Source: an uncultured bacterium
GTDB taxonomy: Bacteria; Planctomycetota; Phycisphaerae; Sedimentisphaerales; Anaerobacaceae
Length of the DNA: 38,234 nt
NCBI GenBank assembly: GCA_913009865.1
Contig: CAJVYK010000001.1
Location: forward strand, 1 to 38,234
Reading direction: 5' to 3'
Part shown: positions 1-29,609 of the stretch, one piece after another
How positions within the stretch are numbered: position 1 is the first letter of the stretch
Layout: each line of letters opens with the position of its first letter
The notes under the pieces: model-generated
Database searches by the model: none
The model's input: only the letters and a program-made list of their open reading frames with translations
What the model was told of the DNA's origin: nothing
Translations under genes and position numbers: made by a program

Positions 1-945
1 CATAGTGGGCAGGGTCAGTGTGGCTGCAGAGCCATTGGCGTTGTAGGTCAAACTAATCGAAAGACTGCTTGCCCCTGCGGTATTATCCGTCAATACAATT
101 TTGCCATTCTCAAGAGTCGCCTTGGCCCTTCCATCAAAGGAGTCATTGATTTCCGAAATAAGATGACTTAGCTTGGTATTACTGGTAATACTGAGATTTA
201 CCTGGGTTATAGTATTTCCATTATGGTCGGTACCGGTTATTTCAATAACTTCGCCGCCTTCGAGGGGGTTGCTTCCGAACTGGTCAAGGTCTTCTATTTT
301 TGAGCTTAGCGTAGCGTTATCACTGCTAACTGTAAAGGCAGTATCAGCTTGCCAGATTTCGGTACTGCTTGCATTAACTGAGATTTTATAATCTGTGCCG
401 GCATCGTTGCCGTTTAGTACCAAATGATAAGCATCGTTGTAGTACAGCAGGCTTGCTGTAACACCGGGATTGTTCGCATCGTTATTGATTAAGCCGACCA
501 TATCTTCCAACGTTGTAGTCGCCGTGGTTGTTATGGATGTTTCCTGCTGGTTATATGAGTAAATAAAGGTGCCGGCGCCGACGTAGTCTTCGGCATATTC
601 CTTGCCGGCGGTATGAACCCAGCGCTCGGCATTGGCCAACTGATTGATTACGACTGTATGATTGCTTTCAAAGGCGTTATAGGACGCTTCGGCGGTCAAT
701 ATGTCCGTATCGCTGGAAGCGGTTGAAAAGGCGCGAAGCTCATCGGCATCGGAGAGAGCTCGAGCAGAGCTTCTTAAAGCATCCAGCTTGGTTTCCAGCG
801 TGCTTAAAGCGTCTTTTTTTTCGTCCCAGACACTTTTACGATCTTCGTACATATTGAGTGTACGACGCTGGGCAGCCATTAACTGGCTGATAAGAGCGCT
901 TGTATCAATGCCTGTGGAAAGGCCTGGAAAACGTAAAGTTGACAT
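1..945 (-). CDS. fliD: Flagellar filament cap protein FliD (HAP2). This is the N-terminal 315 codons; the C-terminus lies beyond the left edge.
   Basis: The frame is open on the minus strand to the window edge, so it has no in-window stop and is missing from the ORF track. My translation from the ATG at 943-945 reads MSTLRFPGLSTGIDTSALISQLMAAQRRTLNMYEDRKSVWDEKKDALSTLETKLDALRSSARALSDADELRAFS, then HTVVINQLANAERWVHTAGKEYAEDYVGAGTF and DANNPGVTASLLYYNDAYHL. This is the typical FliD N-terminal heptad region and central-domain pattern. I checked all 315 codons and found no stop. Confidence 0.85.
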   Translation of the reverse strand, partial: MSTLRFPGLSTGIDTSALISQLMAAQRRTLNMYEDRKSVWDEKKDALSTLETKLDALRSSARALSDADELRAFSTASSDTDILTAEASYNAFESNHTVVINQLANAERWVHTAGKEYAEDYVGAGTFIYSYNQQETSITTTATTTLEDMVGLINNDANNPGVTASLLYYNDAYHLVLNGNDAGTDYKISVNASSTEIWQADTAFTVSSDNATLSSKIEDLDQFGSNPLEGGEVIEITGTDHNGNTITQVNLSITSNTKLSHLISEINDSFDGRAKATLENGKIVLTDNTAGASSLSISLTYNANGSAATLTLPTM

Positions 946-1091
946 CTTTGTCTGCCTTTTTGTCTAAATTTTCACGCTTTTACAAAAAAATTAAATAAAT
1001 ACGGCTAATACATACGCTTTGCGCAACTTTATTATCGTTTAAAGATAGCTTTTGCTTAACTATTTATCTTACTTGCATAGCATATTATTAG

Positions 1092-4000
1092 TTAACAAGC
1101 GGCCTGCTGTACTGTTTCGGCGTATCCGTGCCGAACAAATTCGGATTTTTGTAGTAACTGCTGAACCAGCCGGTTTCCCGGGGCCATTTCAAGACAGTCT
1201 CTTAGCTTTGAACAGGCCTGCTCGAAAGCCGTTTGTGCGTAAACAGGCGCATTTGATTTTATGTAAGCCTGCCCTATTGTAAGGCAAGTTACGGCGGCCA
1301 GGCATTTAGCATGCAATTGCCTTCTTTCGGGGGCTATCCTGTCCCAGGCGACGTCGGGAAACAGCTCGTCCGGCGCAAACGTGTCGGCAAACCGCTCAAC
1401 CACCTCGAAATGAGATTTTGCCTTTCGGGCAGTGAAGTTTCTTGAAAGACTGTCGGTGGTCATTCGGCGCAGATACAACGCCGCCCTCAAGTGATGTATT
1501 TTCAGGCCCTTCTTTACGAATCGCCGCATCATATCGTAGTCTTCAGCCATATCCAACTGCTCATCAAAAAAACCGATTTTATCAAAGACACTTCTTCTAA
1601 TGCAGGTTCTAAACGGCACGACCGGAAAGCCGCAGCGGAACAGGTCCCTGATGAGCAGTTTCCGGTTTGTGTACTCGGGTCGTTCAATTATCCGAATCGA
1701 CTTGCCATCCTCATCAATAAGGTGGTCGTCACAATAAACCAAATCGGTCTCCGGATATTTTTCGAACTCGGTCAGGTGTCTGGCGATAAAATCCGGCGCC
1801 ATAATGTCATCGGAATCGAGTTTGATTAGAAAACTGCCTTTAGATTTTTTTATCCCAACATTATGAGTGGTTGCAAGCCCGGAGTTTTCCTGATAGAAGT
1901 ATTCGATTCTTTCATCTTTGAAGCCGGCGATGATGTCTTTAGTATTGTCTGTCGAGCCGTCATCGATGAGGATAAGCTCAAAATTTCTATAGCTTTGGGT
2001 TAGAACGCTTTCAATCGCCTCTGTAATATACTCAGCGGCGTTGTAGGCGGGCATAATCACCGAAACCAGCGTATTTGTCTGTTCCTTGGCCAGTGTTCTT
2101 CTTATAAGAGCATTTATCTTTGCCTTCTCGCGGGTTAGTCTGCCGATAAAGGCCTTGGTGGTATCGTGGCTCTGTGAGCTTGGCAGTTCTCTGTAGAGGT
2201 ACAGGCACTTATCCACGAACTTCAATTGCGTTACTTCCTCCATTTTGTAACTGATGTCCCTGTCCTCGGCATATAGTATGTCCTCGTCGTAGCCGGAGGT
2301 TTTCAGATAGTCAGCCATCTTGAAAGTCCTGAAAGCGCTTACCAGATGCGCGTCAAGATTGGTCTTGCCTGCCGGTATTTTCGCTCCGAAGCCAATCTGC
2401 CTTGGCGCAAGGTCTTCGTGACAGCACATAAACTGTGAGTATATAAGACCGGCATCGGGGAAATCAACGTGATGTGAGTACATTGTCTCAACAGCATCTT
2501 TTGTAAGACAGTCATCGCTATCCAGGATGCCAAAATACTCTGACTGAACGTTGGCGATACCGCTCTTTAACGCGGCAATATAACCTCTATTCCGCTCATG
2601 CTGAATCAGCCTTATACGCTTATCATCGAGATACCGATTGATTATCGCCACTGAGTTATCAGTCGAGCAATCTTCAATAATGATTAGCTCCCAGTCCTTA
2701 AAAGTTTGGTTCAACACGGATTCTATGGCCTCGGCGATATAGCCGCCATTATTGTAATTGGCCATAATTACGGAGAATTTCGGTATCGAATTTGACTGCT
2801 GTTTACAGTGCTCGATATTACTCGCCTCAGCCGCCGGCTTGTCGCCATTCCTGCGATGAAGCGCCTCGGCCATTGCAAGCTCGGCATATTGATTTTGCGC
2901 TTCAGCTTTTGCGAAAGAAATAGTTCCCGGCCAGTACCTTAATTTGTATAAATATTCTCCCATGTTTCGTATTTCCCCTATTTCGGATAATCGAAGCCAC
3001 AGGTCGTAGTCCTGGGAATACATATATTTTTCATTATACCCTCCGACTTCTATCAGAGAGGTTCTTCGCAGCATTGCCGTCCCGTGAGCAACACAGTTTC
3101 CATCTAACAATCCTGCTTTAATGCCATCAGGTTCTGTTGGCCGTCTGTCATAGGCGCCGCAGATTTCGCCGTTGGAATCTATCCTGGCACACCAGCATCC
3201 CAAAACTGTACAGTTCGGATTTTCATCTAAAAATTTTACCTGTTTTTCAAATCGCTGGGGATGAGAAATATCGTCTGCATCCATTCGGGCAATGTATTCG
3301 CCTCTGCACAACTTCAAGCCAATATTCAAAGATTTCGTCAGGCCGATGTTTTCAGAATTTCTGTAGATAAACGTCCTTGAATCTTTCATCTTAACGAGTA
3401 TCTCAGATGTCCTGTCAGTGCTTGCATCGTCAATTATAATCACCTCGAAATCCTGATATGTCTGGCTGTATATGCTCTTTAACGCCTGTTCGATGAATTT
3501 TTCGGTGTTATAAACAGATATTAATACGCTTATCTTAGGCTTGTCAGTCATATCCTTGTTTTTTTCATTGTCGGGTATATAAGCGTTAAGACCGTCGCCG
3601 TAATAATGTTTAGCTCTGTTATTGTGCCCCTGGAGGTAAACCAGGCCTCTGTCATCGATATATTGATACAGCCGATTATCTAATACGAAGCGATATAAGC
3701 TGCTGTCGGGTATGCCTACAAATACATTGGGCCAAACCACATCTGGCTCTATTTGCTTCAACAGCTCCGCTGTTTCCCTGATATCCGACTCGGTCTCACC
3801 GGGAACCCCAACGACTACGCTCGCTGCTGCTTTTACACCAAATTCATGACACCATTTAAAAGCATTTTTAATCTGTTCGACAGTAATATCTTTCTGTAAT
3901 AAATCCAGTATTCTTTGAGAACCGCTTTCCACTCCGAAATAAAACCCCTTTGCGCCGGCGCGGGCCATCAACTCAACCGTCTCTCTGCTGAGGTTGGAGA

Positions 4001-5816
4001 CCCTTGATTCACAGGCCCAGGATATCTTTATCCCTTTCTCTATAAGCAAATTACAAAATTTGCTCAATCTTTCCTTATTAAGGGTAAAATTATCCTCCCG
4101 GAAATAGATTCCTTTAACTCCGTAATGTTCGATAAGATGTTCAATATCGGAGACAATTCGTTCAGCGCTGAAATATGTATATTTCCTGCCCCAGACAGAG
4201 CAGACAGAGCAGAATGTACATCTAAACGGGCAGCCGCGACTCGTATTCATTGTGAATATAGGGCTGTCCTGAAAAAACTTAACGCTCCAGTCATAGGGTA
4301 AATTAACGAAACAATCCCAGGCGGGCATTGGTAATGCATCCAGATTTTCTATGCGGGGATAATTCACAATTCTTTCGGTAACTTTGCCGTCTGCAATATC
4401 GAGAATTGCACGTTCCCCTTCCCCCTGCACAATGTAATCGACAAAGTCTGGAATGGTATCTGCAGCTACGGTAGTGTGAGGGCCTCCTACGATTATCTTG
4501 CCGACCCATTTGCGTGTTTGTCTCAAATGTTCGAGTTTGTGCAGCATTCGGAGAGTATCGCGGAAGCAAATTGTATTCGCATAAATGCCGACATAATCTA
4601 TTTTGTTTTTCCAAAGGTAGTCTGTATCGAGAAAGTTGGTCGGCTGTAAGTAGTTGTCTATGAAAGATACTTCGTGGCCGGCGTTACGCAGCACGGAAAT
4701 CAGGAACCCGATTCCTATAGGCGGCCTTTTTTCTTTAGTTGAAAATGGCGCCTGGGCCGGGGCGGCGGAGGTCGTAAGCAGAATTCGCTTTCGAGGACTC
4801 TCGCTGTCAGAATGAGATATTCCGGACGGTTCATTTGTTTTTCTTTCCTGATGCGAAAATGTACAACTTATCTTCGGCTGTTCCGGCTGCATCCTGTCTA
4901 ATTCATCGAACATCGCACTTAGTCTTTTCACCCAGGTATGCTCTTTCAATGCCCTGTTATAACCGCAATTCGCTATCTCCATTCGCTTATCATCATTCTT
5001 TAGATAATACGAAATTTTTTCCACCGCTTCGGCAATGTTCTCGAAGCATTCTATTTCCTTACCTATCTGGTAATATTCTTCTAATCCATCGGCATATTCG
5101 GTCAGCAAAAAGCCGCCGCACATCGGCACTTCGAAAACTCTGCCTTTTATCTGTTTGATACCGTCATTCCGGGAGCTGCCGCAAAAGTTAAGATTGATTT
5201 TGCTGGCATTAAATATTTTTATCATATCATCGAATTCGACGAATTTTCCGAACCCTTTTCCAAAAGCAGTAATCGGCACAGCCCTGTTTTCCAGATAAAG
5301 CAGATTTTCCAGCCGTTTCCCATGGCCGCCCCCGATGAAAGTAACATCATAGGCAAATTTGGCGTCGATTTTTTTGTAATAATTCTGATTTGACGCCCAC
5401 TGAGACTTGATAACATTAAGGCCCAATTTTGCATACTTCTCAACGGAATGCTTATCTGTAGTAACCGAGCAAAAAACGTGCCTGGCTACTATTCTCGAAT
5501 AGTCTTCAAACCGCCAGTGGTCATCGGAGAACCAGGCGATTACTTTTGTTCCTAATGTACCAATCGTGTCCAGCGTTTTCATCTCTACCTGGTCCTGGTA
5601 GGTATGGAGCAGAACATAATCGGGCTTTTCTTTTCTTACTGTCTCGATGATTTCTGCATTCATCGATTCCTTGCCGATTTGTTTGATTTTTTCAATGTAA
5701 TTATAGTTGATTACATTTGAAAAAATCTGCTTCAGCGGCTCGTAGAAATTAATATCGCAGTCGTAGTTTATACAGCCTACGGTTAAAAATAGGATTTTTC
5801 GTCCTTCCATAAGCAT
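1092..5816 (-). CDS. 1574-aa multi-enzyme fusion: CgeB-like glycosyltransferase, B12-binding-type radical SAM domain, three GT2 glycosyltransferase modules and a short helical TPR-like tail.
   Basis: N-terminus: SKINLNFCG...GRVFEVPMCGGFLLTEY...ISYYLKNDDKRMEIANCGYNRALKEHTW, matching the CgeB/Glyco_trans_1_2 pattern. Middle: a Rossmann-like stretch IGIGFLISVLRNAGHEV...IIVGGPHTT, followed by the radical-SAM cluster SRGCPFRCTFCSV (CxxxCxxC, DNA about 4205-4235) and GFYFGVESGSQRILD. Three GT2 signatures follow: ISVLISVYNTEKFIEQALKSIYSQTYQDFEVIIIDDASTD; FSVIMANYNNGGYIAEAIESVLNQTFKDWELIIIEDCSTDNS; and VSVIMPAYNAAEYITEAIESVLTQSYRNFELILIDDGSTDNT. Each has a downstream DxD-type motif (MDADD, LDSDD, LDSDD). 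Confidence 0.85.
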   Translation of the reverse strand: MLMEGRKILFLTVGCINYDCDINFYEPLKQIFSNVINYNYIEKIKQIGKESMNAEIIETVRKEKPDYVLLHTYQDQVEMKTLDTIGTLGTKVIAWFSDDHWRFEDYSRIVARHVFCSVTTDKHSVEKYAKLGLNVIKSQWASNQNYYKKIDAKFAYDVTFIGGGHGKRLENLLYLENRAVPITAFGKGFGKFVEFDDMIKIFNASKINLNFCGSSRNDGIKQIKGRVFEVPMCGGFLLTEYADGLEEYYQIGKEIECFENIAEAVEKISYYLKNDDKRMEIANCGYNRALKEHTWVKRLSAMFDELDRMQPEQPKISCTFSHQERKTNEPSGISHSDSESPRKRILLTTSAAPAQAPFSTKEKRPPIGIGFLISVLRNAGHEVSFIDNYLQPTNFLDTDYLWKNKIDYVGIYANTICFRDTLRMLHKLEHLRQTRKWVGKIIVGGPHTTVAADTIPDFVDYIVQGEGERAILDIADGKVTERIVNYPRIENLDALPMPAWDCFVNLPYDWSVKFFQDSPIFTMNTSRGCPFRCTFCSVCSVWGRKYTYFSAERIVSDIEHLIEHYGVKGIYFREDNFTLNKERLSKFCNLLIEKGIKISWACESRVSNLSRETVELMARAGAKGFYFGVESGSQRILDLLQKDITVEQIKNAFKWCHEFGVKAAASVVVGVPGETESDIRETAELLKQIEPDVVWPNVFVGIPDSSLYRFVLDNRLYQYIDDRGLVYLQGHNNRAKHYYGDGLNAYIPDNEKNKDMTDKPKISVLISVYNTEKFIEQALKSIYSQTYQDFEVIIIDDASTDRTSEILVKMKDSRTFIYRNSENIGLTKSLNIGLKLCRGEYIARMDADDISHPQRFEKQVKFLDENPNCTVLGCWCARIDSNGEICGAYDRRPTEPDGIKAGLLDGNCVAHGTAMLRRTSLIEVGGYNEKYMYSQDYDLWLRLSEIGEIRNMGEYLYKLRYWPGTISFAKAEAQNQYAELAMAEALHRRNGDKPAAEASNIEHCKQQSNSIPKFSVIMANYNNGGYIAEAIESVLNQTFKDWELIIIEDCSTDNSVAIINRYLDDKRIRLIQHERNRGYIAALKSGIANVQSEYFGILDSDDCLTKDAVETMYSHHVDFPDAGLIYSQFMCCHEDLAPRQIGFGAKIPAGKTNLDAHLVSAFRTFKMADYLKTSGYDEDILYAEDRDISYKMEEVTQLKFVDKCLYLYRELPSSQSHDTTKAFIGRLTREKAKINALIRRTLAKEQTNTLVSVIMPAYNAAEYITEAIESVLTQSYRNFELILIDDGSTDNTKDIIAGFKDERIEYFYQENSGLATTHNVGIKKSKGSFLIKLDSDDIMAPDFIARHLTEFEKYPETDLVYCDDHLIDEDGKSIRIIERPEYTNRKLLIRDLFRCGFPVVPFRTCIRRSVFDKIGFFDEQLDMAEDYDMMRRFVKKGLKIHHLRAALYLRRMTTDSLSRNFTARKAKSHFEVVERFADTFAPDELFPDVAWDRIAPERRQLHAKCLAAVTCLTIGQAYIKSNAPVYAQTAFEQACSKLRDCLEMAPGNRLVQQLLQKSEFVRHGYAETVQQAAC

Positions 5817-5826
5817 TTTCTTTCCT

Positions 5827-8298
5827 TTAAAGCTTTTTTACCTTTCTCAGGAAACCTGATGGACAGGATGTTATGAGATGTTTCTTCTCTTTTTCTTCAT
5901 CCTGTTCGAAGTCACTTCTCGTGGAGAGGAATTCCTGTATAGCCTCGTAGGGGCCAGGTCCGTATTGTGGGAGTAGTGGGTGCCCGTTTACAGTACCGTC
6001 TTCAACAATCATATAATTTCCTATAGTTACGATGTCAGAATACAACACCATTTCTTTGAGAACATGCCCCTTAGAGTGGTCGCTATCAAGTAGTACCATA
6101 ACCCCGCTGTTGTTGACCATCATCTTTATTTTTTCAACAACTTTAATATCCGTGCTGTCTCCTACGATACAAGTAACCCTCTCTTTGAATACTCTGTGGT
6201 CCGGCATTTCCTTGCTCGTAAGGTCAACTGTGATAACCTTACCTCTGCCTATCAATTCAAAGATTGAAGCAAAGAAAAAAGACGCACCTCCTTTGTTGGT
6301 GCCGCATTCTACTAAATAGTCAGGCTGTCTCTCCCATAGTATTTCAGCAATGGTGAACATATCAACAGGATACTGAAGTATAGGGGCTCCTAACCAGTAT
6401 GTATTTTGAAACGGTTGAACCATTCCCAACTGTTTTGGGTCATAGTAAATTTTATGGAACTCATCAATAATGTTCTTGATGGCCATCTGTTCTTTTTTCT
6501 TTATGTACTGAGTTGTTTTGGCGTAAAAGTGGTTTATGCCTGTTTTGCTTAATTTTTTAGATAAGTTACCTGGAAACTGCCGATTGTACGCAAGCTTTTG
6601 GTCCAAATAGTAAAAGTTTTTGCTTCTTAAAATTCTACACCACATATCAATATCTGCTGCGCTTCCCACGTCAGCGTCGAAAATACCGACCTTTTCAAAA
6701 TCTTCTTTTCGAAACAATATAGATGTCGGCCATCCTACCGGTCTTTTTTGTAAAAGATAATTTTTGATAAATTCTTCACCATTCTCCTTTGTGTTTTTGT
6801 TGAATAACCGATATGGATTATTATTGTTTTTTATGTCGTTATTCTCATCGATGATGTGATAATTACAACAAACGACTCCCACATCAGGACATTCATTTAG
6901 GATTTTTACCTGTTCAGCAATGCAATTATTTTCGAGTATGTCGTCATCTCCCATTATTTTGATATATTCACCCGAAGATAATGACACAGCCTTATTCCAG
7001 TTCTTTATGAATCCTATGTTACGTTCATTTCTGATGAACGTAACATTCTTTATGTTAGAGTAAGCCTCCGAGAGACTTACGGTGTCGTCTGTAGAACAGT
7101 CATCCAAAACTAAAATTTCTACGTTAGGATAAGTTTGATTGACCGCCGAATCTATTGCCATTTTGAGGTAATCGGCTCTATTAAAGGCCGTGATTAGTAT
7201 CGATATCTTTGGGATTTGTCCTTTAGGAACAACAGTTTTACAACTACGAGCAACACAGATTATGAAATCTTTTTTATCGAGATGATCCTCAACGTTATGC
7301 GTCTGGTAGTTCTGGTATTTAAGAAGTTCAGGTATCAGATTATTTGCGGATAACCATTGCTTAATTTTTGCCTCATCAATATAAAACGTCAGATGAAAGC
7401 CCATGTTAATTGCCGCAGGACTCCTCTCCTGTATATAAGGCGTTGAAAGAATAAGCGTTCCGCCAGGTTTAAGTGCACGGCTGAAAATTCCAAACAGTTT
7501 AAGGATATCGTCTTCCTTCAAATGTTCAATTGTCTCAAAGGAAACGATATAATCAAATAAAGATTGGTACTTTAAATCTAATAGATTTGCATGGACAAAT
7601 TCGACGTTCTTCCTGTTTTTGTAACGAACTTTTACTTGTTCTATAACTTTTTCGTCAATATCCACGCCAATTACACGGTCGGATTTTTCTGATAACATAA
7701 TGCTGCCATAGCCTGTCCCACACGCAAAATCTCCGACCGTTTTTCCAGGCGAAATGATAGATTTAGCATACTCATATCTCTTGTAATGACTTTTTTGGGT
7801 CGTACCTAATTCATCAAATTTAACGTCTTCTTTGTAAAATATATCGACACGTTCACCATTACCGTCTAAGTTAGCTTCGGGAGAGCAAAAAGGGGTTTTG
7901 GTCAATACAAAATTTTTATTTGCAGAAACGCTCATCTTCTCCCCTGAAGCTGCAAGGTCGTTAATGGATTCTTCCAATATCTGCTTATCAAATTCGATAA
8001 AACCACTTACAAATAGCAAAAACTTGCCTCTTGCTACCATTGCTGCCTTATTGAATGACTGCTCTTGACTTAAGAATCCACCATGGTCCAAAACCTTTAT
8101 CGCCGGTAAAAACGCCCTTAATTGTCTTTCATCAATCTCCAATCCCCGGCTGTTAACAACCACCAGTTCATAGTCACCCGGCAGCTCCCTCTCGCTCAGT
8201 TTTTGCAGGTACGCACTGAGCTTCGAAGAATCGTTACCGGCGGACAGGATAATCGAGCAGCGCACAGCCGCTTCAACTTGTGCTTCCGTATTTAGCAT
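5827..8298 (-). CDS. 823-aa multi-enzyme fusion: degenerate GT2-like module, class I SAM methyltransferase, GT2 glycosyltransferase and CmcI-family (cephalosporin hydroxylase-like / sugar O-methyltransferase-like) domain.
   Basis: SAM motif I VGDFACGTGYGS, with RVIGVDID and LKPGGTLILSTP. GT2 signature ISILITAFNRADYLKMAIDSAVNQTYPNVEILVLDDCSTDDT, with GDDDIL. C-terminus NTYWLGAPILQYPVDMFTIAEILWERQPDYLVECGTNKGGASFFFASIFELIGRGKVITVDL...IVGDSTD fits the CmcI-type fold pattern. The N-terminal 130 aa look GT2-like, but SGF replaces the DxD. A 10-nt gap separates this ORF from each neighbouring ORF. Confidence 0.8.
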   Translation of the reverse strand: MLNTEAQVEAAVRCSIILSAGNDSSKLSAYLQKLSERELPGDYELVVVNSRGLEIDERQLRAFLPAIKVLDHGGFLSQEQSFNKAAMVARGKFLLFVSGFIEFDKQILEESINDLAASGEKMSVSANKNFVLTKTPFCSPEANLDGNGERVDIFYKEDVKFDELGTTQKSHYKRYEYAKSIISPGKTVGDFACGTGYGSIMLSEKSDRVIGVDIDEKVIEQVKVRYKNRKNVEFVHANLLDLKYQSLFDYIVSFETIEHLKEDDILKLFGIFSRALKPGGTLILSTPYIQERSPAAINMGFHLTFYIDEAKIKQWLSANNLIPELLKYQNYQTHNVEDHLDKKDFIICVARSCKTVVPKGQIPKISILITAFNRADYLKMAIDSAVNQTYPNVEILVLDDCSTDDTVSLSEAYSNIKNVTFIRNERNIGFIKNWNKAVSLSSGEYIKIMGDDDILENNCIAEQVKILNECPDVGVVCCNYHIIDENNDIKNNNNPYRLFNKNTKENGEEFIKNYLLQKRPVGWPTSILFRKEDFEKVGIFDADVGSAADIDMWCRILRSKNFYYLDQKLAYNRQFPGNLSKKLSKTGINHFYAKTTQYIKKKEQMAIKNIIDEFHKIYYDPKQLGMVQPFQNTYWLGAPILQYPVDMFTIAEILWERQPDYLVECGTNKGGASFFFASIFELIGRGKVITVDLTSKEMPDHRVFKERVTCIVGDSTDIKVVEKIKMMVNNSGVMVLLDSDHSKGHVLKEMVLYSDIVTIGNYMIVEDGTVNGHPLLPQYGPGPYEAIQEFLSTRSDFEQDEEKEKKHLITSCPSGFLRKVKKL

Positions 8299-8308
8299 TG
8301 ATACTTCC

Positions 8309-8620
8309 TCAGATATTACTTCGATAAACCTCTATGGTCTTTTTGCCCTTGCGGAGCCGGCTTAACTCTTCGGTGGTTCCGGCTTTTTGAACGGTAACGG
8401 CCAGACATAAATCTTCGTATAATTTTTGCAATTGCTCTTGTCGATTTTTAAATTCCGGCAGTTCGAGAACCCCTGTCTGTGCGATTTTTCCCACAACAGA
8501 ACCGGCTTGCTTGCTTAAAACCTCAACCTTGTTGATGTTACCCTGCCGGGCCAGCTCTATTTGCTTTTCCAGCAGACTCTGAAGCTTATCCAACAGATGT
8601 ATCTGTCTATCCATACTCAT
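8309..8620 (-). CDS. Small 103-aa heptad-rich (coiled-coil) protein. It may be a FlgN/FliT-like chaperone, but the function is unknown.
   Basis: It has a 4-nt ATGA overlap with the upstream TPR ORF (tcat at 8617-8620 on the plus strand). The sequence is helical and heptad-rich (LLDKLQSLLEKQIELARQGNINKVEVL...QEQLQKLYEDL). I recognise no family-specific motif. Confidence 0.5.
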   Translation of the reverse strand: MSMDRQIHLLDKLQSLLEKQIELARQGNINKVEVLSKQAGSVVGKIAQTGVLELPEFKNRQEQLQKLYEDLCLAVTVQKAGTTEELSRLRKGKKTIEVYRSNI

Positions 8621-9264
8621 CCAACCTGAACTCCTGTCCTGCTGCCTTGTCTTGTTTGAGCCAAATTGTGCTCAACTTCCTCCAGAAGATTAGCTGCATC
8701 CTGATGGCCGGCATCCAAAGTTAAAATGTCCAGGAGGATTTTTTTGGACTGCTCAAGCCGGCTGTCTTTCATATATAACGCTGCCAGGGAGAACATAACG
8801 GATATGTCAGCCGGGTGCATATCCAAATACAGCTGCAGATAGTAAATGACCTTTGCGAATGAGCCCATCTGGCAAGAGGCCTGAAACAGTCCCAAAAGAG
8901 CTGTCAGGTTGTCGGTATCTAACTCCAAACACTTTAGATACATCTCAAAGGCCTGCTTGTAATCACATTTTTGTTGTGCGACCATAGCCAGTCCGCAATA
9001 GGCCTTGGCGCAATTGGTGTCCAGCCGAGCCGCGACCCTGAAGGCTACTTCAGCATCATCAAGAAGATTTTCCTGCAGTCCAACTACTCCAAGACCAACG
9101 TATGGACCCGGCTCATCAGGTCCCAGTGATGCCGCTTTTTCGTAGCAGCGCTGTGCCTGTACATAGTTGCCGACGGAGGTGTAACAATCGCCGAGTTCCT
9201 GTAAAACCTCGTAGTGCTGGGTCAAATCGGGCTGTTCAGCAGTATTTTCCTGTGTTATGTCCAT
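8617..9264 (-). CDS. Stand-alone TPR-repeat protein (215 aa).
   Basis: It contains repeated 34-aa TPR-like units, for example LGDCYTSVGNYVQAQRCYEKAASLGPD, AKAYCGLAMVAQQKCDYKQAFEMYLKCLELD and FSLAALYMKDSRLEQSKKILLDIL. It overlaps the upstream ORF by 10 nt. Confidence 0.7.
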   Translation of the reverse strand: MDITQENTAEQPDLTQHYEVLQELGDCYTSVGNYVQAQRCYEKAASLGPDEPGPYVGLGVVGLQENLLDDAEVAFRVAARLDTNCAKAYCGLAMVAQQKCDYKQAFEMYLKCLELDTDNLTALLGLFQASCQMGSFAKVIYYLQLYLDMHPADISVMFSLAALYMKDSRLEQSKKILLDILTLDAGHQDAANLLEEVEHNLAQTRQGSRTGVQVG

Positions 9265-10823
9265 AACAATTCACTTCCTTCAAGTATTTGTTCCGCTCTT
9301 TTGAGTAATTCAATCGCTGAGTTAAAATTTACTTTTTCCCGGCTAACCTTTGCTTCTAACAAGAGTGTATTCACTGTAGGCCGATGCCGGTTGACTTCGC
9401 AACTGAGCTTAGCTGCTTTGGTGTGGCTGCCAGCTTTGAAAAAAGCCTTCGCGGCCAGTGTTTTCATCCATAGCTGGTTCTGGTGATGTTCGGCAATATA
9501 TTCGAATAGCTGGGCTGCCTGGGCCCAGTTACCGTCTTTTTCCGCTGACCGGGCTTGTTGAAGCAACTGGTCAAACTGAAAGGGGATTTCTTCAGGACGC
9601 AATTGTCTTATTACAATACCGGCGGCTTTCAGAGATTCGCAAATTGACAAATGTGGAAAGCTTTCCCGAGCGTACTTTAAGTCATCTTTTTTTACTACCA
9701 CCGCCCAGAGCATATCCGTTGAACCTTCCAGTTCAAATCCTTCGCGAGCATCCGAATTGTTAATCAGAGCGTAAAGCGGGTCCTCTATCCACATTTCCTC
9801 TATGTCAAAGCCGCTTGGTACGATGACAATATACTCGCCATCGCATACGGCCAGGGCTGTATCGATCCGCTTGGTACTGGAGGCGGGAAAGTTGACCGGT
9901 ACGTTGATTATGTTTGGCATATCTGTGTTGAGCTTGTTGAAATCGGTATGCGGCAGCGGAAGATAAATTTTGTACGGATAGAAAGTGTGCCTCCAGATAG
10001 AGCCGATGGTTTTTCCCGCCTGTTTGTTCAGCCGATCCGGAGAAAAAATGATGGACATATCCTTAATCTTTGTCCAGGGCTTGGCCGGCCTTGTGGTTCG
10101 TATCGTCAGAAGGTTCTTTAGATACTCGTTTTCATCTTTGCGCTGCTGAACTGATATTCTGTCGGATTCGCCGACAGGGCTGTAAAATTCGCCCGTGATT
10201 TCGCAGACGTGATGAAAATCCGAAAAGAAAGCCAGCCGACGGGTTATGTCCCAGTCGATTAGAACGTTGAGCTGTTCATTATAAAGACCTGTCTTTTCAA
10301 GCAGGTCTCTGCGGTGCATCAAGCTTACGTGCAGGGCGTGATTGAAGTAGAGCATAAGAAAACGGTCGAAATCACGGCTGATTTCAACGACCTTGCTTAA
10401 GACCTGCCGGCTGCCGTCCGGAGAAACTTTACAATATGCTTTGTACAGGTCGCTGTACGCAACCTGGCAGTCGCTTCTGTTTTCCAGAGCATCAACCAAC
10501 GTTTCGATATGATGGGGATAATATAAATCGTCGTCGTCAAGATAGGCGATGTATTTTCCCTCGGCTCGGGCTAACGCTTCGTTGAGCGAGAAGGCCTTGC
10601 CGTGATTTTCCTTCCTGTTGATAAATATTATCCGTTGGTCGTTAAATGAATTAACTATATCGCTTACGTCTTCACCGCCGTCGTTGATTACAATAACCTG
10701 GAGATTTCTGTAACTCTGGTGCAAAGCGCTTGCCAGAGCCACAGACAGGTACCGGGGCCGATTAAAAGTCGGGACGAGCACGCTGACCATCGGCCCAGTC
10801 TTGCTCTCTATGTCTTTGGCCAT
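9255..10823 (-). CDS. GT2 glycosyltransferase with a C-terminal TPR-like region (522 aa).
   Basis: The N-terminus VSVLVPTFNRPRYLSVALASALHQSYRNLQVIVINDGGED, followed by YLDDDD, is a GT2 signature. The C-terminus has helical TPR-like repeats (NWAQAAQLFEYIAEHHQNQLWMKTLAAKAFFKAGSHTKAAKL...AIELLKRAEQIL). Confidence 0.8.
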   Translation of the reverse strand: MAKDIESKTGPMVSVLVPTFNRPRYLSVALASALHQSYRNLQVIVINDGGEDVSDIVNSFNDQRIIFINRKENHGKAFSLNEALARAEGKYIAYLDDDDLYYPHHIETLVDALENRSDCQVAYSDLYKAYCKVSPDGSRQVLSKVVEISRDFDRFLMLYFNHALHVSLMHRRDLLEKTGLYNEQLNVLIDWDITRRLAFFSDFHHVCEITGEFYSPVGESDRISVQQRKDENEYLKNLLTIRTTRPAKPWTKIKDMSIIFSPDRLNKQAGKTIGSIWRHTFYPYKIYLPLPHTDFNKLNTDMPNIINVPVNFPASSTKRIDTALAVCDGEYIVIVPSGFDIEEMWIEDPLYALINNSDAREGFELEGSTDMLWAVVVKKDDLKYARESFPHLSICESLKAAGIVIRQLRPEEIPFQFDQLLQQARSAEKDGNWAQAAQLFEYIAEHHQNQLWMKTLAAKAFFKAGSHTKAAKLSCEVNRHRPTVNTLLLEAKVSREKVNFNSAIELLKRAEQILEGSELLWT

Positions 10824-10831
10824 ATCAAAAA

Positions 10832-12289
10832 CTATCCAAGTCGATTTTCAACCGGCAATTGGAAATCACCAACAGGCAATTTATCTGAATCCATCTCGGC
10901 TTCAAATTGGGTAAAAATTTCGTTGATTTTGCGCAACTGTTCTTTCAGAGGGTAATTTTCTTCTACGAATCTGCGGTACTTCCGCGGCTCGTATGTACCG
11001 GAGAGAATCTGCTCACAGAATTCTTCGGAAATGTTAAATAGAAACTGCGGCGGGAAAATCTGGTCTGCTCCCGGGAAATTGTGGATAACCGGTTTCAATC
11101 CGCAGGCCATACCTTCCAGCAATCCCATACCCTGAGATTCTGCGATGCTGGCTGAGACGATGTAGTGTTTATTCTCAAGCCAGGAATTTATATCTTCCTG
11201 CCAGCCGTCAAAAAACACCACATCTGTGAGTTCAAGTGCTTTACAGATATGCCTGATATACTGTTCGAGCATTGGGTCCTGGAAAGTTCCCGCAAAGAAC
11301 AGCTTATATTCAGAGTCAATGTAGTGCAGCTTCTGCATACACTGCAGAAGGGATACAGGGTTCTTTCTCATATTCAGATAGCCCACACAGGCCAGATTCT
11401 TGCCGGGCTGTCTCTCAATGAACTTGAACTTATCGAAGTTGACGCCGTTGGGAATCGTGACAACCCGCGTGCGACTTTCGATATCGGGCACTTGTTTAAT
11501 CAGTGCGTCTTTGACAAACGAGTTGCCAACGGTGATGAGTGTATCTATGTTCTCCCACCGGACCCGGCTCGGCCAGTTCTGGTAGGCCTCGAAACGGTGA
11601 AGCCGGACAATATTTTTGCAGACTTTCGGCAGTTTTGAGGCCTCTGCAACTACATCGGTACACCACTCAAACCAGGCTATGTCACTGGCCTTCATTAGTT
11701 CATACATCTGGTCGATACTTTGGTTCCCGGAAAGCTGTACCTGATATCGAGATTCGGTGAATTCGTAAATATCCGTCAGAAACTTTACATCGCCGCTTAA
11801 TCCGCAGAAGAATGCGATTTTGCCTCTTTTAGAGCGAATCACTTCAATCATCGGCTTGAGAATTTCCTGGTCGGGCCAGTTTGTCAGTGAACGGAGCAGC
11901 ATTTCGATGGCGTCGGCCTTATTGTCCTGATTTAGAAATACATTAGCGGTTCTGTTAAGTACATCAGCATTCAATATGCCCATTCGCTCCATATCGTCGA
12001 AAAGCTGTACCGCTTCGTTTGCTCTCCCGAGAGCAAGATATGCCTCTACCAGATTCCAGATTATCTCAGGGCTGTCGCTCTGCAGGGCCCTGGCTTTGAC
12101 AAAATGATTGATGGCTTCGTCCGAGCGGCCCAGGCAGTGGAGAATTGCTCCCGCATCGTTCAGGGCCTGCGCATCATCCGACGCTGTGCGAAGATGTTCT
12201 TGAATACAGTCGAGAGCTTCGCTGTGCCTGCCGGCCTCGGCTAATTCCAAACCTCTCTGGTAATGATTCGATTTTGTCCCCATTGTCAT
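10832..12289 (-). CDS. N-terminal TPR plus C-terminal GT-B (GT4-like) glycosyltransferase. The architecture resembles FlmG-type flagellin glycosyltransferases.
   Basis: N-terminal TPRs: YQRGLELAEAGRHSEALDCIQEHL, LNDAGAILHCLGRSDEAINHFVKARAL and WNLVEAYLALGRANEAVQLF. The C-terminus carries the GT-B/GT4 hallmark ESQGMGLLEGMACGLKPVIHNFPGA. A GGAG RBS lies about 10 nt upstream of the ATG at 12289. Confidence 0.8.
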   Translation of the reverse strand: MTMGTKSNHYQRGLELAEAGRHSEALDCIQEHLRTASDDAQALNDAGAILHCLGRSDEAINHFVKARALQSDSPEIIWNLVEAYLALGRANEAVQLFDDMERMGILNADVLNRTANVFLNQDNKADAIEMLLRSLTNWPDQEILKPMIEVIRSKRGKIAFFCGLSGDVKFLTDIYEFTESRYQVQLSGNQSIDQMYELMKASDIAWFEWCTDVVAEASKLPKVCKNIVRLHRFEAYQNWPSRVRWENIDTLITVGNSFVKDALIKQVPDIESRTRVVTIPNGVNFDKFKFIERQPGKNLACVGYLNMRKNPVSLLQCMQKLHYIDSEYKLFFAGTFQDPMLEQYIRHICKALELTDVVFFDGWQEDINSWLENKHYIVSASIAESQGMGLLEGMACGLKPVIHNFPGADQIFPPQFLFNISEEFCEQILSGTYEPRKYRRFVEENYPLKEQLRKINEIFTQFEAEMDSDKLPVGDFQLPVENRLG

Positions 12290-12375
12290 CTGCCTTACTC
12301 CGTATTTACGTTACAGTCCTTAAAACAAGTTTTCTTTACAGACCTGCGGCTAAATGGCTATATAGCAACCATTAC

Positions 12376-12390
12376 GCAAATTCTGTGCCG
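12376..12390 (-). promoter_or_regulatory. Sigma-54 (-24/-12) type promoter for the glycosylation operon.
   Basis: The plus strand reads gcaaattctgtgccg, so the minus strand reads CGGCAC-AGAAT-TTGC. GG-N10-GC spacing is correct against the consensus TGGCAC-N5-TTGC. It lies about 87 nt upstream of the ATG at 12289, in the 222-bp gap after flgL. Confidence 0.55.
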
Positions 12391-12511: not shown

Positions 12512-13699
12512 CTATCTGAGGAAATCCAGCAGCGACATAGACATAAGTTTTCCAGCTACGGACAACGACATCTGGTAAAGAACCTGACGGCGAGACATAT
12601 CTATTGCTATTTGAGCAATGTCAGCTTCCTGCAAACGAGTTACTTCATCCTCAGTGTCGTACTTCAGATTTTTTAGACTATCTTTGAGATTGTCCAGGAA
12701 ACCAATTTTTGACCCCGCAGAAACAGATTTTTGTAACAAAAGATTGCTTATCTCTTTCAGTGAATCCAACGAATTATCCTGTAGCTGCTGCAATTGAGCA
12801 TCGGAAAGCTCTCTATCGTTCTCAAGTATGTCCCGGATGGTAATAAGCGTATTGAATGCGTCATAAGTTCCGGGTATGCGTACCAACTCAACTCCCGTAC
12901 TGTTTATTCCGGTAGTGTCAACGTAGAGAACCTGTCCGGTTCGCGAATCCGTTACAAGCTGGTTGGTCTCTCCGCCGGCGGGGACGGTTATGTAGCTGGC
13001 TCCATCGTCAATAGAGAGTTTGTAATTGCTGCCATCGTGGATTACCGTCAGCCAGACATCGCCGGTAACACTCGGTGTCCCCGTGCCGGCTTTGGCGCCG
13101 GTATCACCCGGAAAGATGGGGCTGCTGCGATTGCTCGAACGAAAAATATTATCGCCTACATAAAGAGCACTGGACTGCACTCCGGGGGCCACCTCAATAT
13201 TGCGACCCTCGAGACTGCCCTGGTAGGTTACGCTGGTGATTTTCCCGTTAGTGCGCTCCACGGTATAGGGCGCCGAGGCCGTATCGCTTCCCCCAAAAAG
13301 GTATTGGTTATTATGTTTGGTATTAGCCAGTGAAACTATCTGCTCTAATATATCGTTGATACCCTCTGCTGTCCTTTCTCGTGCCTGGTCGTCATAGATG
13401 CCGCCGGAGATTTGAACCAGACGTAATTTCGTCTCCGCCAGAGATGACATCATATTCTCGATAATGGTGGAGGAAAGCTCCAGCGTACTAACAAGCTCCG
13501 AGAGGCCGTCTATATAATTTTCCATAGACCTTTGCTGAGAGTCGAGCCCTAAAACCTGGTACGCCGCAGATGGGTCATCAGAGGCCCGATTTATCCGCGA
13601 GCCGGTAGATGCCTGTTCCTGCAGGCGAGCCATCGCCTCGGCTTGAAAATTCAAAGAAAAGCTGATATTATTGTAAATATTACTCAGTGTTCCGCTCAT
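12512..13699 (-). CDS. flgL: Flagellar hook-associated protein 3 (hook-filament junction) FlgL.
   Basis: It has a flagellin-type N-terminus, ASTGSRINRASDDPSAAYQVLGL. It lies immediately downstream of flgK. The C-terminal helical region is EADIAQIAIDMSRRQVLYQMSLSVAGKLMSMSLLDFL. Confidence 0.85.
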   Translation of the reverse strand: MSGTLSNIYNNISFSLNFQAEAMARLQEQASTGSRINRASDDPSAAYQVLGLDSQQRSMENYIDGLSELVSTLELSSTIIENMMSSLAETKLRLVQISGGIYDDQARERTAEGINDILEQIVSLANTKHNNQYLFGGSDTASAPYTVERTNGKITSVTYQGSLEGRNIEVAPGVQSSALYVGDNIFRSSNRSSPIFPGDTGAKAGTGTPSVTGDVWLTVIHDGSNYKLSIDDGASYITVPAGGETNQLVTDSRTGQVLYVDTTGINSTGVELVRIPGTYDAFNTLITIRDILENDRELSDAQLQQLQDNSLDSLKEISNLLLQKSVSAGSKIGFLDNLKDSLKNLKYDTEDEVTRLQEADIAQIAIDMSRRQVLYQMSLSVAGKLMSMSLLDFLR

Positions 13700-15720: not shown

Positions 15721-16242
15721 TCAAAAGCGCAAATTTACAAAAGCTGTGTCAGTCTGCCGTTTGGCGGCCCCGTTGGAATTGTAGTAAACTATCCCGGTGC
15801 CGCCGAGGTCGAAAATACTTTTCAAAAGCAGGCCGTTGAATCTGGCACAATCTGACAAAAGCAGTGCCGTGCTTAAATGCTCTTTCTTAAGCTCCTCAGT
15901 CAATACTCTTAATTTTGCCTTCCTCTCGGCTACTTGAGCTTTTTTTTCTTTTGGCAACGCAGCTTCGAGTCTGGACAGGGTCATTTGCCCGGGGTTACAG
16001 CCGAAAGCAATCGCCAATTCTTTTCGTAACGACTGTCGTTGTGATTCGCAGCTTCTGTAACGCTCCGAGGCAACCCGAATAGTCTCGAGCAGTTTACCCA
16101 GAGAGGTATCGTTACGCTTAACGACCAGACTGCGCAGTTCGTTCAATCGCAACGAACACTCTTGTATATGCTGAATGTCTTTGTCGAGACAAGTGAGCAG
16201 TTCGTCGATTTTATCTTCTATTTCAATAACCGCCTCTTTCAT
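15721..16242 (-). CDS. flgN: FlgN-like export chaperone. The assignment rests mainly on position.
   Basis: This 173-aa helical protein sits directly upstream of flgK, the classical flgN position. It has an ATGA-type overlap with the preceding rod-binding gene. Sequence-level support is weak. Confidence 0.55.
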   Translation of the reverse strand: MKEAVIEIEDKIDELLTCLDKDIQHIQECSLRLNELRSLVVKRNDTSLGKLLETIRVASERYRSCESQRQSLRKELAIAFGCNPGQMTLSRLEAALPKEKKAQVAERKAKLRVLTEELKKEHLSTALLLSDCARFNGLLLKSIFDLGGTGIVYYNSNGAAKRQTDTAFVNLRF

Positions 16243-16583
16243 ATATTCTTATCCAGTGACTGTGTCGTTGTTTTTGCCTGGCTCGAATCGGTTAAAAATT
16301 TGTATATGTCCTTCCACATCCCGAAGCCGCCGTTGTTTGCGATGTCGCGGGCCAGGTACAGCCAGAATATCCCCTGAACCTGTCCGGATGCGCCATCTTT
16401 GTCAAAGCCCCAGTCCCCGATAGTATTTTTCATCTCGTTCAGCAGTTTATTGATAAAAACCGACTCAAAATCTTTGGCTATTTGTTTCTTCTTCTCTTCC
16501 GAAATACCATCGAGCTTGCCTAAATCCCGCAGGGGACTCGGCGGTGAAACGGCTCCGGTTAATATCAATTTGGCGCTATCCAT
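16239..16583 (-). CDS. flgJ: Rod-binding protein, equivalent to the FlgJ N-terminal domain only, with no muramidase domain.
   Basis: The motif KDFESVFINKLLNEMKNT, followed by ...GGFGMWKDIYKFL, matches the Rod_binding pattern (FEa.fl.qmlk.M ... GG.GlA). The protein is only 114 aa. Confidence 0.75.
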   Translation of the reverse strand: MDSAKLILTGAVSPPSPLRDLGKLDGISEEKKKQIAKDFESVFINKLLNEMKNTIGDWGFDKDGASGQVQGIFWLYLARDIANNGGFGMWKDIYKFLTDSSQAKTTTQSLDKNI

Positions 16584-24513: not shown

Positions 24514-24528
24514 GCAATTGGTGTGCCA
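24514..24528 (-). promoter_or_regulatory. Sigma-54 promoter for the flgD-to-flgL operon.
   Basis: The plus strand reads gcaattggtgtgcca, so the minus strand reads TGGCAC-ACCAA-TTGC. This is an exact match to TGGCAC-N5-TTGC. It lies about 108 nt upstream of the flgD ATG. Confidence 0.7.
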
Positions 24529-26896: not shown

Positions 26897-26911
26897 TGGC
26901 ACAATTGTTGC
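26897..26911 (+). promoter_or_regulatory. Sigma-54 promoter driving the TPR-TPR-activator operon.
   Basis: The sequence is tggcac-aattg-ttgc(t), an exact match to the TGGCAC-N5-TTGCW consensus. It overlaps the ORF-track start at 26905, so the real start of the downstream CDS must lie further downstream. Confidence 0.7.
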
Positions 26912-27036
26912 TATATGTTGGGAATGCGGGCTACCATTTTGCAATTTGCCGCAGAATAGGGGATGCGTTAGCTCTCCGTCAGGAGTCCATAGGACTGCTA
27001 CAGGTAAACGCTAAGCTGAGGGCGAAGTCGGAATTT

Positions 27037-29544: not shown

Positions 29545-29609
29545 AGATTAAAACTGAAAGCTCAAAGTGAAAAACTACAATTCAAAATTCAAAACTTGCA
29601 AATTTTACG
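29545..29609. repeat. AT-rich intergenic repeat module (copy Y) at the junction of the two TPR genes.
   Basis: About 28 of 36 positions in 29554-29589 are identical to 22247-22282. It also contains aattttac (29601-29608), which is shared with 36888-36895. Confidence 0.4.

Follow-up and report, generated by a model that had tools for sequence, protein, structure and literature searches.

A class-wide glycosyltransferase core and a shuffled glycan cassette between flgL and fliD in Phycisphaerae: a probable flagellar glycosylation system

Flagellar glycosylation is mainly understood from Proteobacteria, Campylobacterota, and Firmicutes, where it mostly involves nonulosonic acids attached by Maf or FlmG enzymes. 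Here, we describe a six-gene locus (genes A to F) that lies between flgL and fliD in an uncultured marine planctomycete of the Sedimentisphaerales (class Phycisphaerae; assembly GCA_913009865.1). The locus is part of a 38-kb flagellar supercluster with genes on both strands, which makes up the window, i.e., the whole stretch of DNA that was analyzed (contig CAJVYK010000001.1, positions 1 to 38,234). Its most likely role is to modify flagellar proteins with a complex methylated glycan. In our reading, which we consider probable, it is a cytoplasmic O-glycosylation system for a flagellar type III export substrate, arranged in two tiers (a core, A to D, and a cassette, E and F) and built like the FlmG, Maf/GlfM, and GmaR systems but with different enzymes.

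In Pseudomonas, glycosylation islands are situated between flgL and fliD (PMC3927599, Fig. 1 legend). The a-type island of P. aeruginosa and the viosamine island of P. syringae resemble the locus described here in placing soluble glycosyltransferases (GTs), methyltransferases, and sugar-modifying genes in that interval (PMC3927599); their glycans contain rhamnose and methylated sugars, and the islands vary from strain to strain. Unlike our locus, these islands adjoin fliC, have their own deoxythymidine diphosphate-sugar genes, and lack both a B12-dependent radical S-adenosylmethionine (SAM) enzyme and a core of tetratricopeptide repeat (TPR)-GT, TPR, and FliT-like proteins. Conversely, no flagellin gene is found nearby in the planctomycete, and its four-gene core is kept across the whole class. 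Low G+C content, extreme variability, and a mix of GT, sugar biosynthesis, and methyltransferase genes are the hallmarks of enterobacterial flagellin glycosylation islands (PMC4875605) and recur here. Those islands, in contrast, are found between fliC and fliA, have a patchy distribution, and lack a conserved recognition core.

FlmG of Caulobacter and Brevundimonas binds flagellin through an N-terminal TPR domain and selects the donor with a C-terminal GT-B domain (PMC7591256; bioRxiv 10.1101/2022.03.25.485807). Gene A has the same TPR plus GT-B layout, a likeness of architecture, and FlmG, as would be the case for A, is expressed before a late flagellar step. FlmG differs in transferring pseudaminic or legionaminic acid, whose biosynthesis genes accompany it, whereas the GT of A is of the Glycos_transf_1 (GT4-like) type. 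In Shewanella, Maf-1, with its TPR, and Maf-2, with the small cis-encoded GlfM, bring the GT to flagellin; GlfM, an adaptor needed by Maf-2 for flagellin glycosylation, is a FliS/FliT-like helical bundle of 89 residues (bioRxiv 10.1101/2023.12.03.569772), and C and D would be analogous partners. Unlike Maf systems, the planctomycete locus has no MAF_flag10/DUF115 domain, its GTs belong to GT2 and GT4, and D is encoded after a TPR gene and not beside maf. Finally, Listeria GmaR, a GT-A domain followed by TPRs, is a flagellin O-linked N-acetylglucosamine transferase with a second, noncatalytic function (PMC9638930). Gene B parallels GmaR in its order of a GT2 domain followed by a TPR-like part and in the hint of a noncatalytic role in lineages where it is a pseudoenzyme, but no antirepressor domain is present. 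There is no support for placing the locus in the FlmG, Maf, or GmaR families: it has neither pseudaminic/legionaminic acid (Pse/Leg) genes nor a DUF115 domain, and its similarity to GmaR is only generic. The GmaR structure (PDB 22ao) was tried as a relative of B and F and rejected, since it does not match B at E ≤ 0.01 and finds in F only general GT2 similarity. The kind of system is thus a known one; what is new is its enzyme complement, the class-wide TPR/GT/FliT-like core with its pseudoenzyme variants, the giant shuffled fusions, and the recurrent B12 radical SAM enzyme.

The six genes run on the minus strand from 12289 to 1092 and are separated, in order, by an 8-nt gap, a 10-nt overlap, a 4-nt overlap, and two 10-nt gaps. 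Upstream lies flgL (13699..12512, minus strand; Pfam Flagellin_N and Flagellin_C), encoding the hook-filament junction protein and following directly on flgK (15691..13727, minus strand); downstream lies the filament cap gene fliD (1..945, minus strand; FliD_N and Flagellin_IN), which runs off the end of the window. The full-length FliD orthologue of relatives is unusually long, with 787 amino acids and a FliD_C domain. An initial annotation made from the letters alone had already described six tightly packed codirectional open reading frames (ORFs), with 8- to 10-nt gaps or 4- to 10-nt overlaps, between flgL and fliD, and the ORF coordinates and the Pfam domains of both flanks agree with it. 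Its assignment of GT, SAM methyltransferase, B12/radical SAM, and TPR domains fared equally well, every GT, methyltransferase, and radical SAM call being backed by profile searches (Pfam and NCBIfam). The count of eight GT-type modules needs correction: the GT4 module, the CgeB-like module, and five intact GT2 modules stand, but two and not one degenerate GT-A-like modules were found (E residues 13 to 118 and B residues 256 to 410), which brings the total to nine. The DxD motif is kept in all five GT2 domains. Over 19-residue windows, the maximum Kyte-Doolittle score in the six proteins is 1.34, so transmembrane helices are not predicted, and Pfam/NCBIfam scans of the window revealed no Wzx/Wzy/ABC export, NeuB/Pse/Leg, or Maf (DUF115) domains, both as originally noted. 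None of the six proteins has a Pfam match to MAF_flag10.

Gene A (12289..10832, minus strand; 485 amino acids) encodes an N-terminal TPR part (approximately residues 1 to 150; TPR_1/2/16) and a C-terminal GT-B domain of the GT4 type (Glycos_transf_1, residues 287 to 412). Its EX7E motif (ESQGMGLLE at residue 384) is kept in most of 72 orthologues, and the two parts are about equally conserved (mean identities of 0.68 and 0.70 for the TPR part and the GT C-lobe, respectively). The search for homologues gave 1147 matches, of which the top 120 are 68 to 91% identical; PDB matches to A are TPR proteins only. The product of B (10823..9255, minus strand; 522 amino acids) starts with a GT2 (GT-A) domain (Glycos_transf_2, residues 14 to 119) that looks active from its intact motifs: LDDDD or LGDDD/IDDDD, i.e., an intact DxD, occurs in 83 of 83 aligned Sedimentisphaerales-level homologues. 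This domain is also the most conserved part of B (0.75 identity, 47 invariant columns). Residues 256 to 410 are modeled as a Rossmann/GT-A-like fold within the stretch where the AlphaFold2 model is confident (residues 256 to 515; residues 117 to 251 are poorly modeled), and the best Foldseek matches of the whole protein are the tandem-GT-A polymerases PmHS2 and K4CP. We base the designation of this middle part as a putative degenerate second GT-A module on the model and on Foldseek and not on hhalign, whose match to GT2 is weak (33 to 47%). The last 100 residues form six helices, and the TPR-like part (416 to 515) scores just under the TPR_19 threshold.

C (8617..9264, minus strand; 215 amino acids) is a free-standing TPR protein recognized by multiple Pfam TPR families. 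It matches SycD/LcrH-type TPR chaperones weakly (47 bits, under the cutoff) and is the most conserved member of the core (mean identity of 0.71 across 76 species), which makes it a candidate substrate-binding or adaptor subunit. The 103-amino-acid product of D (8309..8620, minus strand) is predicted to be a three-helix protein (AlphaFold2 pLDDT, 83.6; helices 3 to 26, 29 to 49, and 55 to 102). Its best TM-scores are to FliT of Bordetella (3h3m; 0.62/0.69; root mean square deviation, 2.7), followed by FliT of Yersinia and Salmonella, and a precomputed match to PF05400 (FliT) is recorded for most of its homologues. In our own Pfam scan, FliT was found at E ≤ 0.01 in 6 of 40 homologues (best E, 9e-5) and not in D of the window itself, and Foldseek returned nothing significant, listing FliT structures at E of ~0.9. 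Taken together, the PF05400 matches of the homologues, the three-helix model, and the FliT TM-scores are suggestive of a flagellar export chaperone or adaptor of the FliT (or GlfM) type, not an enzyme. A weak Pfam match to FlgN was overruled by hhalign against the lineage's own FlgN alignment (probability, 0.3%).

Conservation of this core was assessed by mapping the window proteins on all ORFs of 85 loci (L numbers below) from species-level genomes. The gene order flgI, FlgJ-like gene, flgN, flgK, flgL, A, B, C, D, variable region, and fliD is near-invariant, and the A-D set follows flgK-flgL in the 80 fetched Phycisphaerae genomes with few exceptions. Homologues of A to D thus adjoin flgK-flgL in nearly all of the approximately 85 loci, distant Phycisphaerae included, which answers in the affirmative the neighborhood check that had been proposed with the initial annotation. 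Mean identities to the window over approximately 70 species (0.65 for A, 0.68 for B, 0.71 for C, and 0.49 for D, compared with 0.66 for FlgL, 0.64 for FlgK, and 0.55 for FlgN) show that the core is as conserved as FlgK and FlgL. Relatives of B occur in at least 481 species-level genomes (one genome scanned per species); the 80 best are all labeled planctomycete metagenome-assembled genomes except for one Aegiribacteria and one "uncultured bacterium." An exhaustive HMMER search of 50%-identity representatives recovered full-length relatives down to 34% identity, those with names being Phycisphaerae or Planctomycetota. In some loci, an extra gene sits between flgL and A: an A paralogue of ~630 amino acids (33 to 37% identical) in L013, L014, and L021 and a methyltransferase-GT9 protein in L003 (8445-9833).

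In distant lineages, the core is still found linked to flgKL. L087 has flgK-flgL-B-C-D followed by unrelated genes, with no A and no island; L088 has flgK-flgL, two unrelated genes, and A-B-C-D, again followed by unrelated genes; and L089 has flgK-flgL, one gene, a larger A' (908 amino acids; TPR, GT1, and GT9), and B-C-D, after which come TPR-TPR-kinase-FlrC-flgBC-fliEFG. The core was therefore not inserted but belongs to the ancestral flagellar cluster of the Phycisphaerae. The view of A to F as a single operon wedged between flgL and fliD consequently had to be abandoned: A to D are an ancestral module, and only E and F form the variable island. Several of these distant cores (L086, 246-1823; L087, 10001-11686; L088, 10001-11527 and 8559-10004) look like natural pseudoenzymes. 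In L086, L087, and L088, B has lost both the DxD (replaced by LEPHA, LDDRV, and LDGES) and the PTFNRP motif, and A of L088 has lost the second Glu of EX7E; the motifs of L089 are intact. In L086, where B is 34% identical, C retains ~57% identity. FlgL itself has 395 amino acids in Sedimentisphaerales versus 475 to 480 in L087 to L089.

What follows the core is of a different nature. Gene E (8298..5827, minus strand; 823 amino acids) comprises a degenerate GT2 half (7849-8298), a class I SAM methyltransferase (7279-7821; Methyltransf_25, residues 183 to 302), a GT2 (6499-7236; Glycos_transf_2, residues 366 to 537), and a methyltransferase of the rhamnosyl-O-methyltransferase/CmcI type (5830-6471; RMNT_CmcI, residues 631 to 819, 192 bits). 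The degenerate half (residues 13 to 118) aligns with the N-terminal half of GT2 (hhalign, 95.5%) and has VSG at the DxD position. The G+C content of E (39.0%; 0.40 at third codon positions) is well below that of A to C and flgKL (47 to 49%; 0.52 to 0.56). Gene F (5816..1092, minus strand; 1574 amino acids) encodes a CgeB-like GT-B part (4797-5816; Glyco_trans_1_2, residues 181 to 303), a B12-binding radical SAM part (3597-4769; B12-binding, residues 365 to 472, and Radical_SAM, residues 523 to 686), and three Glycos_transf_2 domains, namely GT2a (2847-3569), GT2b (2097-2819), and GT2c with a helical tail (1095-2084). With an N-terminal cobalamin-binding domain (PF02310; 47.6 bits, cutoff of 32.1) and a CxxxCxxC core (CPFRCTFC at residue 529; PF04055, 97.5 bits), F has the pattern of class B radical SAM enzymes. 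No characterized radical SAM subfamily could be assigned to it, since its NCBIfam matches (PhpK, ApyD, ladderane, HpnJ, and BchE) lie far under the cutoffs; the nearest solved structure to its core is the sugar-modifying enzyme AprD4 (E of 3.5e-21). TPRs in the C-terminal tail of F were also considered, but only a faint ARM match was found. A protein identical to E is known from a marine metagenome, on a 3.6-kb contig only, and an exact look-up of F returned no identical protein.

Among relatives, the slot between D and fliD measures 4.3 to 8.8 kb in the 16 loci with fliD inside the fetched flank and is longer elsewhere, and the cassette always starts directly after D, under the promoter of the core. 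In some relatives, the slot contains nucleoside diphosphate (NDP)-sugar epimerase/dehydratase, RmlC-like, RmlD-like, and UDP-GlcNAc 2-epimerase genes; in others, it contains a single fusion protein of 1300 to 2986 amino acids. Hence, the reported lack of sugar-nucleotide genes is right for the window and does not extend to its relatives, which do have such genes between D and fliD. Among 81 proteins from 22 variable regions, a Pfam census counted 17 GT2, 16 SAM methyltransferase, 13 epimerase/dehydratase, 9 radical SAM, 9 RmlD, 5 B12-binding, 5 to 6 thiamine diphosphate (TPP)-dependent, and 5 to 7 GT1 entries. NeuB/Pse/Leg enzymes were not among the 25 most frequent of the 65 families in these regions. 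The TPP-dependent enzymes (transketolase, E1, and DXP-synthase-like), seen in L013, L017, L027, L041, L058, and other islands, suggest two-carbon branched sugars.

At the level of modules, E and F are mosaics that are not conserved as units. The CgeB-like and radical SAM parts of F form a separate 764-amino-acid protein in L014 (79 to 80% identity), the radical SAM part joined to GT2a recurs in L046 and L079, and of the E modules, E1 plus E2 recurs in L020, L026, and L048 and E2 plus E3 recurs in L007. GT2c with its tail, which is a standalone 404-amino-acid protein in L064, is the final module before fliD in at least 10 of the 16 complete loci (60 to 72% identity). The locus thus has a conserved 5' core, a shuffled middle, and a semiconserved 3' GT2 module. 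In at least 13 relatives, the flagellar slot likewise contains a radical SAM domain. Standalone B12 radical SAM proteins of a second family, 25 to 30% identical to the F domain, occur in L009, L012, L017, L025, L027, L029, L067, L082, and L085. The largest fusions in the slot (2986 amino acids in L008, 2731 in L010, 2556 in L007, and 2542 in L063) unite several modules of the GT2, GT1, methyltransferase, TPR, and radical SAM types.

Transcription of the locus is predicted to depend on RpoN. A sigma-54-type element (12390..12375, minus strand; cGGCACagaatTTGCg, with CGGCAC-N5-TTGC at 12390..12376) with -24 GGCAC and -12 TTGC boxes at the canonical spacing (GG-N10-GC) lies ~87 nt upstream of the start codon of A. 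In 67 of 72 related loci, the same element (consensus, ACGGCACGGAATTTGCA) precedes A at a distance of 40 to 180 nt, while the rest of the intergenic sequence has diverged, and we regard this phylogenetic conservation as the decisive evidence for the predicted promoter. Its position, spacing, and recurrence support the earlier call of a putative sigma-54-fronted operon. Where an extra gene separates flgL from A, the element still stands directly before A. The GGCAC-N5-TTGC pattern occurs five times in the window versus 0.32 expected, with further copies before flgD (24514-24527) and before the TPR/FlrC-like operon (26898-26911); rpoN is absent from the window, and two sigma-54 activators are encoded in it. 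Another perfect copy lies inside F (5469-5482, minus strand), ~334 nt from the start of its coding sequence; it may be due to chance or may act as an internal sigma-54 promoter. A sigma-28-like promoter of the form TAAG-N15-AACGATAA (1058..1032, minus strand) precedes fliD by ~87 nt, and its -10 element, (A/T/G)CGATAA, is conserved in ~12 of 17 loci; it would mark the 3' boundary of the glyco-operon. With a sigma-54 element before A and a separate sigma-28-like element before fliD, the glyco-genes would therefore make up a sigma-54 unit of their own, apart from the late unit of fliD. The terminator scan found no convincing terminator between flgL and A or between F and fliD, so read-through from the glyco-genes into fliD may occur.

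Soluble enzymes, a place among the genes for type III substrates, TPR and FliT-like partners, and predicted transcription with the middle genes make cytoplasmic O-glycosylation before secretion the best-supported reading. The locus also shares the general marks of flagellin islands: it lies in a flagellar cluster, encodes soluble GTs and sugar-modifying enzymes, and is variable, with an atypical G+C content. To this extent, the flagellin-island interpretation of the initial annotation holds (cluster position, soluble GTs and methyltransferases, hypervariability, and the G+C dip of E); the wedged operon and the flagellin gene expected beyond fliD do not. We infer that flagellin is the likeliest target, FliD, FlgK, or FlgL being other candidates, and the order of reactions, the sugars, and the radical chemistry would be as follows. 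The first tier, A to D, would be a recognition and initiation core that attaches the first sugars. In A, a GT4-type GT-B domain is joined to an N-terminal TPR domain, the same design by which FlmG binds flagellin; in B, an intact GT2 is combined with a pseudo-GT-A and a tail resembling TPRs; C would act as a free TPR adaptor; and D, like FliT or GlfM, would link the enzymes with the unfolded substrate or with its chaperone. The second tier, E and F, would be an exchangeable glycan elaboration cassette, in which chain extension would fall to four further GT2 domains and the CgeB-like GT, O-methylation to two SAM methyltransferases (one of the rhamnosyl-O-methyltransferase type), and the radical modification of a sugar, with C-methylation as the default guess, to the B12 radical SAM part. 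Transcribed from the sigma-54 promoter together with the middle (hook and junction) genes, ahead of sigma-28-driven fliD and presumably flagellin, the enzymes would be in place when their substrates appear.

Several observations weigh against this reading. The island of the window has no donor-sugar genes. Neither the window nor the 10 kb around B in the 85 loci yielded a flagellin gene, and blastp with approximate termini of Escherichia coli FliC and the FlgL of the window against all ORFs of these loci detected true FlgL only; beyond fliD, where flagellin had been expected, relatives have convergent flhB and fliR instead (L020, 19358-21298; L036, 20603-21502; L053, 9430-12036). The locus is thus physically linked to junction and cap genes and not to flagellin, and gene order does not point to its target. 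The likeness to GmaR is generic: PDB 22ao matches the third GT2 of F at an E of 3e-6, below more than 20 other GT2 structures. D could be plain FliT, the chaperone of FliD (PMC8036289). Three distant lineages keep B-C-D linked to flgKL although B is devoid of its DxD and nucleotide-binding motifs, one of them (L087) without A. In the literature, we found no glycoprotein data for any member of the Phycisphaerae and nothing relevant on flagellin glycosylation in Planctomycetes, Sedimentisphaerales, or Phycisphaerae. An FHIPEP-like ORF was also seen after fliD in L053.

The persistence of B-C-D with a degraded B implies that at least part of the selected function of the core is noncatalytic, which glycosylation alone does not account for, and the sequences hint at a second role in chaperoning, targeting, or regulation. 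Taken further, this leads to the main rival explanation, which we hold to be doubtful: the core would primarily be a flagellar assembly, chaperone, or regulatory complex whose TPR scaffolds, FliT-like chaperone, and GT folds bind late substrates (such as FliD or the junction proteins) or moonlight in regulation as in GmaR, glycosyl transfer would be secondary or lineage specific, and E and F would be separate cargo in a permissive gap before fliD. L087, with its DxD-less B and neither A nor island, fits such a complex, as do the degenerate B of L086 and L088, the broken EX7E of A in L088, and the fact that the most conserved member, C (57% where B has 34%), is devoid of a catalytic domain. So does the resemblance of D to FliT, a FliD chaperone (PMC8036289), and GmaR is an example of a flagellin GT that also acts as a regulator (PMC9638930). 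Catalytic residues would drift in proteins that only bind, however, and they have not: DxD is intact in all 83 Sedimentisphaerales-level B homologues, whose GT2 is the most conserved part (0.75, 47 invariant columns), and EX7E is kept in most A orthologues. Furthermore, the B of L089 is intact and its A' includes additional GT domains even though this locus lacks an island, and the cassette invariably follows D under a common promoter. A broader version, in which A to D are a new export pathway accessory complex of the whole class, is a possibility that we entertain tentatively. In it, a GT-fold, TPR, and FliT-like unit would handle substrates and couple glycosylation to type III export, glycosylation would be an add-on to an essential assembly function, and the cassette would be a recombination hotspot for glycan diversity. 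If true, the GT-fold proteins would be active in Sedimentisphaerales and pseudoenzymes elsewhere, and the glycan diversity would include radical SAM-modified sugars, which have so far not been reported from flagella.

The locus could also be taken for an ordinary cell surface polysaccharide operon (exopolysaccharide, lipopolysaccharide, or capsule type) whose soluble GTs work on a lipid carrier or on the polymer as it grows, with its export encoded elsewhere and its flagellar position due to historical accident or coregulation. Polysaccharide loci typically contain GT2, GT4, methyltransferase, and NDP-sugar genes, and the best NCBIfam/PDB neighbors of the GT2 domains are EpsE, TuaG, WcaA, chondroitin synthase, and heparosan synthase. 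Multidomain GT fusions also resemble ABC-dependent O-antigen polymerases. A lipid-linked pathway is nonetheless unlikely, as neither the window nor the sampled variable regions encode an initiating phosphoglycosyltransferase, flippase, polymerase, ABC transporter, or membrane segment; the near-invariant synteny with flgKL in at least 80 species, reaching into distant lineages, the flagellar-type sigma-54 promoter, and the TPR and FliT-like partners, which indicate a protein substrate, render the polysaccharide explanation as a whole quite improbable. It is harder still to credit a natural product-like pathway with no tie to the flagellum, in which E and F, using the B12 radical SAM enzyme, would produce a small molecule bearing sugars and methyl groups or would modify a peptide. 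The family-level radical SAM matches do include the P-methyltransferase PhpK, ApyD (a radical SAM enzyme of ribosomally synthesized and posttranslationally modified peptides), AprD4, and HpnJ, but these are far under family cutoffs. No precursor peptide, scaffold synthase, or transporter accompanies the cassette, the radical SAM domain is fused in frame to GT domains, and it recurs in the flagellar slot of at least 13 relatives.

Read as a flagellar glycosylation system, the locus carries this theme into the Planctomycetota with a different enzyme set. Its two-tier design is unusually clean, with a core present in at least 80 species (and B relatives in at least 481) beside a shuffled cassette whose fusions reach approximately 3000 amino acids. 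A to D provide candidates for the recognition of type III substrates by soluble GTs via TPR domains and a FliT-like adaptor, and the natural pseudoenzyme variants could serve to separate catalytic from chaperone-like roles. The cassette is a source of new sugar-tailoring chemistry; a literature search found nothing relevant on radical SAM enzymes in flagellin glycosylation, nor any B12 radical SAM enzyme recurring in such cassettes.

Elsewhere in the window, the minus strand carries, in order, flgD, flgE, a 430-amino-acid gene, flgF, flgG, flgA, flgH, flgI, a FlgJ-like gene, flgN, flgK, flgL, A to F, and fliD. On the plus strand are genes for a FleQ-like sigma-54 activator, two TPR proteins, an FlrC-like response regulator, FliL, a protein with a FliM/FliN-type C-ring domain, FlhA, and a FliA-like sigma factor (37192-38046). 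The 430-amino-acid ORF between flgE and flgF (20972-22264, minus strand) has no Pfam or NCBIfam match and keeps its position in relatives (428 amino acids in L002; L087 has it too); a divergent hook length protein or another flagellar protein is a possible identity. Between flgI and flgN, a 114-amino-acid protein (16239-16583, minus strand), conserved in all related loci, corresponds to the N-terminal rod-binding part of FlgJ only and has no muramidase domain. The two TPR proteins (879 and 339 amino acids) and the FlrC-like sigma-54 response regulator (26905-32165, plus strand) follow the GGCAC-N5-TTGC element at 26898-26911, and no kinase gene was seen in the window. In the distant locus L089, the same TPR-TPR set, together with a small histidine kinase, lies directly 3' of gene D.

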